From the NCBI GenBank assembly GCA_027482725.1, contig JAIXVT010000030.1, positions 1 to 24,114 on the forward strand: DNA of 24,114 bases, given 5' to 3'. The notes beneath the pieces were generated by a model. That model ran no database searches. It was not told the DNA's origin and was given only the letters and a program-made list of their open reading frames with translations. Position numbers and translations under genes: made by a program. The stretch is from Pseudomonadota bacterium. GTDB lineage: Bacteria; Bdellovibrionota; UBA1018; CAIMNF01. Shown in pieces: positions 2,834-21,607 of this stretch (position 1 is the first letter of the stretch; the number at the start of each line of letters is the position of its first letter).

Positions 2834-3484
2834 TTAAAAGCCCCGACCTGTTCCCCATAAAATCTTGTGGAGTTGGTATTGAAAGCGAACAGGAGCTCGG
2901 CTTGCGACGATCCAATCTGCAAGGTGTGTCGGATTGACTTGGGGTACACTCGGCGAAAAATAAATGGGATTTTTGATTCCGGATGTTGTGAATTCTTGAA
3001 CTTGTTGGATTGCCCATTCAAAATCCGCATGGTCCGTAATGACAAATTTAATCTCATCCTGCGGTCGCAGGTGGGTTAAGTTTTCCTTGTATTTCCCGCG
3101 ACACATTCCCGATCCCGGAGTTTTTACATCCATAACCACGCGGCACTCTGGGGGCAACCCCTGGATAGAGATTTCTCCATGGGTTTCAATGCTCACGTGG
3201 AACCCCTCGTGGATTAATCGATCAATGAGAGGACGGGCCTGACGCTGGAGTAGGGGCTCGCCCCCCGTGACTAAAACATATTTTGTGGGCTGGGTCTTTG
3301 CTTCTAGAACAAGCTCATCAATGCTTCGACGTGACCCGCCTTTAAAGCTGTAGGTCGTATCGCAGTAAGTGCAACGCAAGTTACAACCCGTTAGACGAAT
3401 GAAAAAATAGGGTATCCCGACGTGGCTGGTTTCGCCTTGAAGGGAATAAAATGTTTCGGTGACCAATACGTCGTGAAATGCCAT
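2834..3484 (-). CDS. queE: 7-carboxy-7-deazaguanine synthase (radical SAM)
   Basis: ETFYSLQGE N-terminus, FIRLTGCNLRCTYCDT (CxxxCxxC), VTGGEPLLQ, D.KTPGSG and C-terminal QYQLHKILWG. Confidence 0.93.
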   Translation of the reverse strand: MAFHDVLVTETFYSLQGETSHVGIPYFFIRLTGCNLRCTYCDTTYSFKGGSRRSIDELVLEAKTQPTKYVLVTGGEPLLQRQARPLIDRLIHEGFHVSIETHGEISIQGLPPECRVVMDVKTPGSGMCRGKYKENLTHLRPQDEIKFVITDHADFEWAIQQVQEFTTSGIKNPIYFSPSVPQVNPTHLADWIVASRAPVRFQYQLHKILWGTGRGF

Positions 3485-3513
3485 GACTCTCTGAGTCTAA
3501 AGGGGTAACCGTG

Positions 3514-3542
3514 GTTCTACAACCGAGCTGAGTCTCAATCAA
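3514..3542 (-). promoter_or_regulatory. Possible weak sigma70-type promoter for queE (TTGATT-N17-TAGAAC)
   Basis: Minus-strand -35 at 3542-3537, 17-nt spacer, -10 at 3519-3514. The -7 position is C rather than the conserved T. Confidence 0.3.
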
Positions 3543-3582
3543 AAAAATAAAACTTCCCCTCGGTTTTTCAACCGAGGGGAAG
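3541..3582 (-). terminator. Intrinsic terminator downstream of the c-di-GMP riboswitch and upstream of queE
   Basis: Minus strand reads CTTCCCCTCGGTT-GAAA-AACCGAGGGGAAG-TTTTATTTTTTT: a perfect 13-bp stem, GNRA loop and long U tract. Confidence 0.92.
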
Positions 3583-3657
3583 AGGAATTGAAGAGGAGGT
3601 CCCTTTGGCTTGGGTTGGTTAGGGGGACCCCCTTTGAAGATTTGGAAGGCTCTTCCT

Positions 3658-3754
3658 CCTTTGGCAGACCAGCCAGCATCTCGGTCATAAATGACCGGGG
3701 AAGCTCTGTGACTTTGCGTGCCGGACTTTCGTCTCGGGTTGCCTTTTTCAAAGG
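3658..3754 (-). ncRNA. c-di-GMP-I (GEMM) riboswitch aptamer
   Basis: Minus strand reads CCTTTG-AAAAA-GGCAAC-CCGAGAC-GAAA-GTCCGG-CACGC-AAAGTCACAGAGC...GCTGGCTGGTCTGC-CAAAGG. It has a 6-bp P1 (CCTTTG/CAAAGG), a GAAA-capped arm and the ACGCAAAG core. Positions equivalent to Vibrio Vc2 G20 (3743), C44 (3718), A47 (3715), G83 (3673) and C92 (3664) are all present at the expected spacing. Confidence 0.9.
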
Positions 3755-3783
3755 GGGGTACGGTGACACCCTCTTCATAACTA

Positions 3784-3792
3784 AGAATATCA
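3784..3792 (-). promoter_or_regulatory. Extended -10 promoter element (TGaTATTCT) for the riboswitch-containing RNA
   Basis: Minus-strand TG-n-TATTCT about 30 nt upstream of aptamer P1. It implies a TSS near 3779-3776. Confidence 0.45.
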
Positions 3793-3857
3793 ACCCCTGG
3801 AAATGAACGAAATGTGTCTGCTCGGACTGGGTAAAATAAGGCAATATAGAACCCATC

Positions 3858-4976
3858 ATGTTGAACAGAGCTTGGACTATAGCTTTACTGATTATGCCCC
3901 TTTGGGGGGGCGTCTCATGGGTCAGTGAGGCTGAACCCCTAAGCGTTAAACTGAAAGAATTGAATAAAGCATTACCCAAGACTAACGCTCGTCAAGTCGT
4001 GATTTATCCACCTGCCGGTAATCTCAAGATCACGGGTTGGGCGCAAGAATCTGTGCAAATCAACAGTACTTTGGTTTACCCGCAGTCGAGCACAGAAAGC
4101 CCGGAGGTCGGATTATCGGTGCTTGAGCTTCCCGAAGCGGTGGAGATGCGTTGGGTTTTGCAACAAGGTATTGATCTGCTTTCAAAGATAAAACTGAAGC
4201 CCGAGATCGGTTCTGCTCACAACACGATAGAGATAAAAATGCCTTCCCATAAATCGTGCGTTGTTTACGGGGGGAGCCTATCTGGAAATGTTGTGATCGA
4301 GCGGCTCCATGCAGGAGTCGAAATCTTGGGAACGAAAAAATCAGTCCGCTTGTACCAGGTAAAATCTTCGCATACTGCCCGTGTGGTGACTCAAGACGGA
4401 AGCATTCAGGTGTTTTCATCTGAAACTCCGTTACATGCAGAAACAAAAAACGGAGGGATTGATCTTACTGATGTTAAATGTAAGGAGTGTACGCTCATTG
4501 CGCCGCAGGGAAAAATTGTCGCCGTTCATATCGATGGCACAGTCCGGATTTCAACACAGGTTTCTGATGTTGCCATTAGTAAAATGCGGGGTAGCCTTGA
4601 GGTGACCGCCGAGTCCGGTAAAGTGGGTGTTGTTGATTTGGATGGAGGATTCCAATTGGAAACCCAGCGAGCTTCGCTTGATCTTGCGTTGGTCAATGTG
4701 ACTCAAGATAGTTTTATCAAGGCCGATCATACGCAGGTTTCCCTCAAGCTCCCCACCCGTTTTTCAGGTCTGATTGATCTAGTGGGTACGATTAAACCGC
4801 CTGTCGTTTTGTTTCCTCACAAACGGATCGAATCTCGCCAAGGAACCGTGTACGGCCCAACCCCACCTGGAGATCGATTTATCGCAATCGGCGCAAAAGA
4901 AACTCCGCTGATTCGCATCATTCATCGGGGGGAAGTAACCCGTATTGACCGGAATACCGCAGAGGGCGGGTTATGA
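3858..4976 (+). CDS. Secreted DUF4097/adhesin-like beta-strand-repeat protein
   Basis: Signal peptide, an N-terminal 'GNLKITGWAQESVQI' segment, and repeated short beta motifs (T..G.I.., S..G.V.., L.T..G.I) typical of DUF4097-type beta-solenoids. Confidence 0.55.
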   Translation: MLNRAWTIALLIMPLWGGVSWVSEAEPLSVKLKELNKALPKTNARQVVIYPPAGNLKITGWAQESVQINSTLVYPQSSTESPEVGLSVLELPEAVEMRWVLQQGIDLLSKIKLKPEIGSAHNTIEIKMPSHKSCVVYGGSLSGNVVIERLHAGVEILGTKKSVRLYQVKSSHTARVVTQDGSIQVFSSETPLHAETKNGGIDLTDVKCKECTLIAPQGKIVAVHIDGTVRISTQVSDVAISKMRGSLEVTAESGKVGVVDLDGGFQLETQRASLDLALVNVTQDSFIKADHTQVSLKLPTRFSGLIDLVGTIKPPVVLFPHKRIESRQGTVYGPTPPGDRFIAIGAKETPLIRIIHRGEVTRIDRNTAEGGL

Positions 4977-15044: not shown

Positions 15045-15119
15045 TGGCTCGTAGCTCAGCGGTAGAGCACTACCTTGACATGGTAGGGGTCGCTGGTTCG
15101 ATCCCAGTCGAGCCAACCA
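15045..15119 (+). tRNA. tRNA-Val(GAC)
   Basis: Full cloverleaf: acceptor TGGCTCG/CGAGCCA, D arm GCTC/GAGC, anticodon stem CTACC/GGTAG with loop TT-GAC-AT, T loop TTCGATC, discriminator A, encoded CCA. Confidence 0.97.
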
Positions 15120-17402: not shown

Positions 17403-17822
17403 ATGAACGTTTCCGGATTCCTTCCCGCACTCGAACTCGAGTGCGAAGTGGACTTTTTCGCATGGCACTCTTTACCGGATAATCCGGAGGTGCATCAGCA
17501 TCGATTTTTGCTGGCGGTCCGGATAAAGAAAAAACGCCAAGCGGGCCAAGACCGCCTGCTTCATCTCCCCGAATTTAAAAAAATATTAGAGTCGTGGATC
17601 ACCCCGCTTCAGGACCAAGTGCTTAATCAATGCCGAGCGCTGAGTGCATCGATACATGATCGGCCAACGCTGGAAAATCTGATGACTTACTTCTCGGAGT
17701 TGTGCTCGCAAAACGAACCCTTGGGAAGCTGTTGGGTACAAATTAGGCTTGAGCTTTACGAACCCACTGGGTACTTTTGGGGTCGAATTTTACTGAATCG
17801 TGAAAATGGGGGGCACACTTAA
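17403..17822 (+). CDS. 6-pyruvoyl-tetrahydropterin synthase / QueD superfamily (COG0720) protein, atypical active site
   Basis: F.A.H.L, HxH (HQH), LN, PTLENL and a terminal E follow the T-fold QueD layout. The catalytic Cys and the DH His are absent. Confidence 0.7.
   Translation: MNVSGFLPALELECEVDFFAWHSLPDNPEVHQHRFLLAVRIKKKRQAGQDRLLHLPEFKKILESWITPLQDQVLNQCRALSASIHDRPTLENLMTYFSELCSQNEPLGSCWVQIRLELYEPTGYFWGRILLNRENGGHT

Positions 17823-21522: not shown

Positions 21523-21607
<85 letters not shown>

Follow-up and report, generated by a model that had tools for sequence, protein, structure and literature searches.

Riboswitches that sense c-di-GMP control surface, motility and secreted-protein genes. 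In the stretch of DNA analysed here (24,114 nucleotides, hereafter the window), an aptamer of this class is found on the minus strand upstream of queE, the probable gene for 7-carboxy-7-deazaguanine synthase. A conserved link between such an RNA and a tRNA-modification enzyme would join second-messenger signalling to translation. The locus thus raises the question of whether the aptamer is genuine, whether its position in front of queE is conserved in related genomes and whether c-di-GMP controls the gene. A full-text literature search yielded no paper linking GEMM or c-di-GMP riboswitches with queE. This is in line with a preliminary description of the locus, which was aware of no established connection of c-di-GMP to queuosine or 7-deazaguanine synthesis.

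Identity of the aptamer

The RF01051 covariance model (c-di-GMP-I, GEMM-I) matches the minus strand at positions 3753-3660 over its full length (model positions 1-87) with a score of 49.8 bits (E = 3.7e-7), which is above the gathering score of 35 bits. This search had been proposed as a check in the preliminary description, and its outcome confirms the assignment. The match is the only one in the genome assembly, a 75%-complete MAG from an uncultured lineage of Bdellovibrionota, with 1.73 Mb in 346 contigs. Including its 6-bp P1, in which CCUUUG (3754-3749) pairs with CAAAGG (3663-3658), the aptamer extends over positions 3658-3754. It comprises P2 with a GAAA loop (3738-3721), the core CACGCAAAG (3720-3712) and P3 (3711-3665), and thereby shows the three-helix junction of P1, P2 with a GNRA tetraloop, and P3.

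Vc2 numbering was mapped onto the window via the Rfam alignment. The contact bases on the minus strand are G 3743 (G20), C 3718 (C44), A 3715 (A47), G 3673 (G83) and C 3664 (C92), so that all five ligand and tertiary positions, as well as the 6-bp P1 and the GAAA tetraloop, are located where they had been placed by inspection of the sequence. Among 69 distinct aptamers of the same order, 20 of the 25 consensus pairs, the outer P1 pairs included, display changes on both sides. Based on the covariance score, the contact bases and the covariation of pairs, we conclude that the aptamer is a bona fide GEMM-I aptamer with canonical c-di-GMP contacts. The preliminary description had predicted c-di-GMP rather than 3',3'-cGAMP as the ligand from G20; A47 and C92 are also of the c-di-GMP type, in support of this prediction. 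Variants of the GEMM-Ib group that are selective for cGAMP carry A20. Two genes with GGDEF domains were found in the window's genome, by which the organism should be able to make c-di-GMP.

In most members of the order the tip loop of P3 reads (U)ACCCCG, which matches exactly the C-run in the 5' strand of P1. The P3 tip of the window differs, and a CCCC at 3702-3699 lies beside the tip hairpin, not inside it.

Two open reading frames extend across the aptamer, one of 146 aa (3539-3979, minus strand) and one of 72 aa (3588-3806, plus strand). If the region were protein-coding and the RNA match coincidental, these open frames, together with short tblastn matches of the 146-aa frame in relatives, would speak for it. 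However, the tblastn matches come in fragments and do not extend beyond the conserved RNA, neither frame matches any family in Pfam or NCBIfam, and at least 120 codons of the longer frame stay open in only 7 of 65 relatives, where the frames are inconsistent. In addition, the base-pair covariation indicates that selection acts on RNA structure. Both frames were rejected as coding sequences on these grounds, as the preliminary description had already regarded them as spurious, and we assign a coding reading of the region next to no probability. The aptamer might instead bind another ligand (3',3'-cGAMP or an unknown one) or be a decaying relic in this genome. With 49.8 bits it is the lowest-scoring copy of its order (50-85 bits in relatives), which we ascribe to the departure of its P3 tip from the conserved ACCCCG loop. 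The variant model RF03167 also scores 48.6 bits, but this value is under its threshold of 59, and the A20 of cGAMP-selective GEMM-Ib is replaced by G20. The Hypr GGDEF of Bdellovibrio produces 3',3'-cGAMP (PMC9140294), which would provide a second candidate ligand. Since G20, A47 and C92 each have the canonical identity for c-di-GMP and the helices and flanking boxes (see below) are all intact, a different ligand or a decaying copy appears improbable.

queE and its genomic context

The gene downstream of the aptamer (3484-2834, minus strand) codes for a protein of 216 aa whose top matches are four QueE models. The match to TIGR04349 reaches 257.7 bits, which is under the cut-off of 300 bits. 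Radical_SAM matches as well, and the protein contains the CxxxCxxC radical-SAM motif (CNLRCTYC). No other queE-like gene is present in the assembly. tgt is present in the same genome, while a search of the MAG, which is 75% complete, yielded no queC; four near-complete relatives possess queC and queD-type PTPS genes at other loci. Because of the QueE matches, the presence of tgt and the occurrence of queC and queD in relatives, the gene is read as the probable QueE of the pathway.

A weak match to the PTPS/QueD family (17445-17717, plus strand, 27.4 bits) is part of another operon of the window and constitutes the only PF01242 match in the genome. Four relatives (G003, G027, G060 and G075) have two or three tgt-like genes each, one of them within a frame that stays open for about 670 aa, which suggests a fused or specialised transglycosylase. 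On the other side of the leader, a divergent DUF4097 gene starts at position 3858. The window also features two tRNA genes on the plus strand, at 15045-15116 (66.2 bits) and 21523-21604 (49.4 bits), the latter with a long variable arm.

Structure of the conserved RNA

Alignments of the relatives' leaders revealed a conserved unit of about 240 nt that is larger than the Rfam match. The preliminary description had covered only the aptamer; the unit has further elements on its 5' and 3' sides. In 5' to 3' order, it consists of a 5' box, a linker hairpin, P1 and the aptamer, hairpin H1, an anti-P1 strand with hairpin H2, a 3' box and an intrinsic terminator, all located on the minus strand.

The 5' box UGAAGAGG (3770-3777) is the 5' strand of a long-range helix enclosing the aptamer domain. 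It is the exact complement of the 3' box CCUCUUCA (3596-3589). The box pair (GAAGAGG/CCUCUUC type) was found in 53 leaders belonging to ten families. GAAGAAG variants, which occur in two separate families, carry the matching CUUCUUC in four of four cases, and an A-C combination was not observed among leaders with boxes. A hairpin of the type GGGU...ACCC (3756-3771) links the 5' box to P1. It is a putative part of the unit, present in P1-locked folds, and an equivalent GGGUU...AACCC hairpin is visible upstream of the aptamer in relatives.

Just 3' of P1, the variable hairpin H1 (GGAAG-AGC-CUUCC, 3644-3656) folds in every modelled state, and relatives have a hairpin of other sequence at this position. 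The following anti-P1 strand CAAAGGGGGU (3627-3636) is G-rich and complementary to the extended P1 5' strand over 9-10 bp, in the window as a 9-bp pairing with 3758-3750. The same strand doubles as the 5' arm of hairpin H2 (3633-3624), and its UCAAAGGGGGG is conserved in families f1, f4, f6, f9, f11 and f12. The 3' arm of H2, GGGACCUCCU (3603-3594), overlaps the 3' box; the sequence GGACCYCCUCUUCA of this arm and box is conserved across the order.

The unit ends with an intrinsic terminator (3541-3582), identified in a terminator scan, which begins 75 nt 3' of P1. It has a 13-bp stem (3582-3570 with 3565-3553), a GAAA-type loop and the tail UUUUAUUUUUUU (3552-3541). queE starts 56 nt 3' of the U-tract. 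A strong GC hairpin followed by a U-run is present at the same position in most relatives.

Additional sequence features were noted in and around the unit. A third copy of ACCCCUUU (3507-3497, minus strand), about 13 nt upstream of the start codon of queE, could be a pairing partner of the G-rich strand once transcripts read through the terminator; conservation of this copy was not seen in relatives. The conserved C-run of P3 could likewise pair with the G-rich strand, in this case as a pseudoknot. In most relatives (e.g. L005, L021 and L025) an extra hairpin precedes the UGAAGAGG box on its 5' side, some 35-75 nt ahead of the aptamer, and its loop reads A(C/U/A)GGA(A/U). Such a hairpin is not evident in positions 3778-3857 of the window. 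GGA is also found within many terminator loops, and the 3' strand of P1 reads AAGGAGG. Judged by their sequence, the loops of the extra hairpin, the GGA of the terminator loops and AAGGAGG resemble CsrA/Rsm-binding motifs. A recurring DNA motif (TTAACG / CGTTA(A/T)) about 30-40 nt upstream of the extra hairpin in relatives may serve the RNA gene as a promoter element or as the site of a regulator. The SD-like CAAAGGAGG was considered as the driver of a small leader ORF and discarded, because no start codon occurs at a consistent spacing in the leaders inspected.

Conservation of the RNA and of its position upstream of queE

GEMM-I is present in 55 of 61 sampled genomes of the order, almost always as a single copy. 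A total of 72 GEMM-I loci were oriented, 65 of which were assessable for queE adjacency. queE is located 123-341 nt downstream of the aptamer (median 166.5) in 54 of these 65 loci, within 1.5 kb behind an inserted gene in five and is absent within 1-3 kb in the remaining six. The gap between terminator and start codon is only 10-60 nt in most relatives. The window's other neighbours are hardly ever found outside its own family, which rules out general synteny as the cause of the adjacency.

Metagenome contigs were searched independently for a generic GEMM-I 5' signature, and of the 83 matches 9 carried both clade boxes. queE was found at the same spacing in all eight loci with both boxes and enough sequence, compared to 0 of 74 GEMM-I loci without both boxes. 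The survey of related genomes suggested in the preliminary description therefore supports a conserved GEMM-queE adjacency, both within the order (54/65) and in the metagenomic loci (8/8). At 80 queE loci of other taxa, no confirmed GEMM-I was detected. Loose regex matches were obtained for four of them, only one of which (L079) is on the queE strand upstream of the gene; it was dismissed due to the lack of an Rfam match. In the sister order, GEMM-I and queE do not share a contig, and the genes that come after the RNA are on the opposite strand.

Deviating arrangements also occur within the order. In G029, G035 and G072, the RNA unit has no queE downstream and the next gene is on the opposite strand; G029 and G072 retain the boxes, whereas G035 has an f2-type leader without boxes. 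The RNA precedes a secreted trypsin-like protease in G028 and signal-peptide proteins of unknown family in G025 (leader without boxes) and G046. An opposite-strand AI-2E transporter gene separates the RNA from queE in G008. No riboswitch was found upstream of queE in G038, G042 and G074, nor at the relocated queE of G072.

Two further loci differ in copy number or gene content. Genome G022 (family f5) harbours three GEMM-I copies (C274:4697-4788, C26:16300-16387 and C84:999-1086), all near contig ends, two of which are identical and without clade boxes. In L163 (G026, family f9), the genes behind the RNA encode, in this order, an unknown secreted protein, QueE and PTPS/QueD, which places two queuosine genes behind one leader.

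Predicted folding states

In unconstrained equilibrium folding, all 29 leaders modelled adopt predominantly the anti-P1 fold, whose advantage in stability over the P1-locked fold is 0.7-9.7 kcal/mol (median 4.4). For the window, the probability of the box helix is 0.86-1.0 in the ligand-free fold and 0-0.13 with P1 locked. The median values for 28 leaders are 0.99 and 0.19, respectively. Upon locking of P1, the probability falls by more than 0.3 in 22 of the 28 leaders and rises in none. These models predict that the RNA alternates between an open, rod-like form and one with the aptamer closed, i.e. that it has a poised two-state fold of the kind used by riboswitches. By our own arithmetic, the median gap of 4.4 kcal/mol is comparable to the stabilisation from about 1 µM ligand at a Kd of about 1 nM, the Kd being taken as quoted in PMC3627812.

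The probability of the terminator stem is approximately 1.0 in all modelled states of the window. In the window and its relatives it amounts to about 0.9-1.0 with P1 either free or locked, so that equilibrium folding reveals no coupling to the aptamer; this comparison covers relatives with a U-rich tail, many f4 hairpins having been missed by the automatic detector. Of the components of an expression platform, the alternative anti-P1 fold and the terminator are both present, with the same terminator probability in both equilibrium states. Two anti-terminator candidates were rejected. Pairing of the 5' box with a second CCUCUUC copy in the terminator arm (3585-3578) has a probability of 0 in all states, and pairing of the P1 3' strand plus GGAAGAG with the 5' arm of the terminator appears in no ensemble, the terminator remaining at about 1.0.

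Possible regulation of queE

The tight and conserved layout of aptamer, terminator and queE on the same strand leads us to infer that queE is almost certainly transcribed through the leader and attenuated by the terminator. The terminator and the start of queE are so close that there is little room for a separate promoter. Our favoured reading, to which we give an even chance, is that the leader of about 240 nt senses c-di-GMP and is the attenuator through which queE is transcribed. Without ligand, the 5' strand of P1 would pair with the downstream CAAAGGGGGU and the boxes would pair on top, yielding a long rod that keeps the aptamer open. Binding of c-di-GMP would close P1, upon which the G-rich strand would form H2 instead and the box helix would dissolve. 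Most transcripts would end at the terminator and give rise to a discrete aptamer-containing RNA, while queE would be made only from read-through. The conformational flip would alter either the fraction of read-through or the stability of the read-through RNA. Since the flip frees a C-rich segment abutting the 5' arm of the terminator in the models, we lean weakly, at slightly better than even, towards more read-through in the presence of c-di-GMP.

The preliminary description had proposed that c-di-GMP controls queE. The aptamer and its conserved adjacency to the gene uphold this proposal in part, as do the secreted proteins, including the trypsin-like protease, that follow the RNA in loci without queE and are typical GEMM-I targets. 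The predicted terminator is insensitive to the state of P1, however, with the same equilibrium probability in both states and an anti-terminator candidate at 0. Likewise, the RNA is kept without queE in six relatives and some relatives have queE without a riboswitch upstream.

These points lead to a reading of the unit as mainly a stand-alone, constitutively terminated c-di-GMP-binding sRNA of the merRNA kind, which would act as a sponge, as a reservoir or in trans. Depending on which of its two folds is adopted, the unit would expose one or the other purine-rich segment (AAGGAGG or GAAGAGG), and queE would live on leaky read-through, with the adjacency being kept by dependency instead of ligand control. 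This would account for a terminator that forms in the equilibrium models whatever the state of the aptamer, for a conserved structure that exceeds the needs of an expression platform, for the single copy per genome in 55 of 61 relatives and for the six loci in which the unit persists without queE. Orphan GEMM-I RNAs with terminators are found in the sister order and in B. bacteriovorus HD100, and with Vc2 there is a precedent for an aptamer that controls the stability of an sRNA and not termination (bioRxiv 10.1101/617340). On the other hand, adjacency to queE is far more conserved than that to any other neighbour, the clade boxes co-occur with queE in 8/8 versus 0/74 loci, the tight and constant spacing is what is classically seen in attenuators and the sequence resembles merRNA only in the aptamer and P1. 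We consider a mainly stand-alone sRNA to be a substantial possibility, though appreciably short of an even chance.

The attenuator and the stand-alone sRNA are not mutually exclusive. Tentatively, and with a probability a little below even, c-di-GMP may gate transcription into queE in this order while the leader, mostly terminated, doubles as an abundant c-di-GMP-binding RNA that is merRNA-like in concept. If c-di-GMP does act on queE, the second-messenger state would set the supply of 7-deazaguanine and hence the queuosine level of tRNAs, providing a direct route from lifestyle signalling to codon-level tuning of translation. The two-state architecture, with its anti-P1 strand and covarying long-range helix, offers concrete mutations for tests of the mechanism.

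Comparison with known systems

The aptamer is a member of RF01051, and its pairing with queE is undescribed in the searchable literature. The riboswitches that usually regulate queuosine genes belong to preQ1 classes I-III. They are found in leaders of queuosine genes, as is the RNA described here, but their ligand is an intermediate of the pathway, whereas the expected ligand in the window is a second messenger. None of the preQ1 families of Rfam yielded a match in 3440-3900 at E <= 10; a preQ1-I-like pseudoknot overlapping the 5' end of the aptamer was discarded for this reason.

The window shares the aptamer fold, the GAAA tetraloop of P2 and G20, A47 and C92 with Vc2 of Vibrio cholerae and Cd1 of Clostridioides difficile. 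As in known c-di-GMP-I riboswitches, a 5' leader is followed by an intrinsic terminator and a gene on the same strand. The target differs, with queE in the window compared to motility, adhesion, secreted-protein or competence genes in known cases. Coupling between aptamer and terminator is absent from the equilibrium models of the window, a further difference from c-di-GMP-I riboswitches of the Vc2/Cd1 type. Most riboswitch transcripts of Vc2 exclude the downstream gene (Pursley and Waters, bioRxiv 10.1101/617340). In the Vc2-terminated sRNAs, the ligand state of GEMM-I sets the abundance of an ncRNA by a route other than classical termination (bioRxiv 10.1101/617340), as may also hold for the window's RNA. 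The Vc2 aptamer forms the 3' end of the sRNA and is not followed by a terminator, whereas a canonical terminator stands 75 nt after P1 in the window.

The merRNA of B. bacteriovorus HD100 is massively expressed and was reported to be without conservation outside Bdellovibrio (Karunker et al. 2013, PMC3627812). The GEMM-I match of HD100 (1,073,868-1,073,951, minus strand) falls within the published coordinates of merRNA (PMC3627812). merRNA and the RNA of the window occur in different classes of the same phylum, as the single GEMM-I of their genome, and share a CCUUUG/CAAAGG P1. In both, the aptamer is part of a longer RNA with an intrinsic terminator at its end, located about 100 nt downstream of the aptamer in merRNA. 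However, merRNA is 445 nt long, has 234 nt before the aptamer and is followed by a gene on the opposite strand. Nowhere in its 445 nt does it carry the GAAGAGG/CCUCUUC boxes of the window's clade, nor does it have the G-rich anti-P1 hairpin; homology was thus not detected outside the aptamer. merRNA is an orphan in that no same-strand gene lies downstream, whereas in the window queE follows 56 nt after the U-tract. The queE of HD100 is located near 35 kb and merRNA near 1.07 Mb, about 1 Mb apart; this distance and the opposite-strand gene downstream rule out that merRNA represents the same locus as the queE leader.

Taken together, single-copy GEMM-I RNAs are widespread in the phylum to which the enigmatic merRNA, thought to be lineage-specific and gene-less, belongs, and in one large order of uncultured Bdellovibrionota such an RNA is tied to queE. 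Unlike in known GEMM-I riboswitches, the aptamer of the window lies inside a conserved long-range helix, is accompanied by a dedicated anti-P1 strand and occurs as a single copy per genome.
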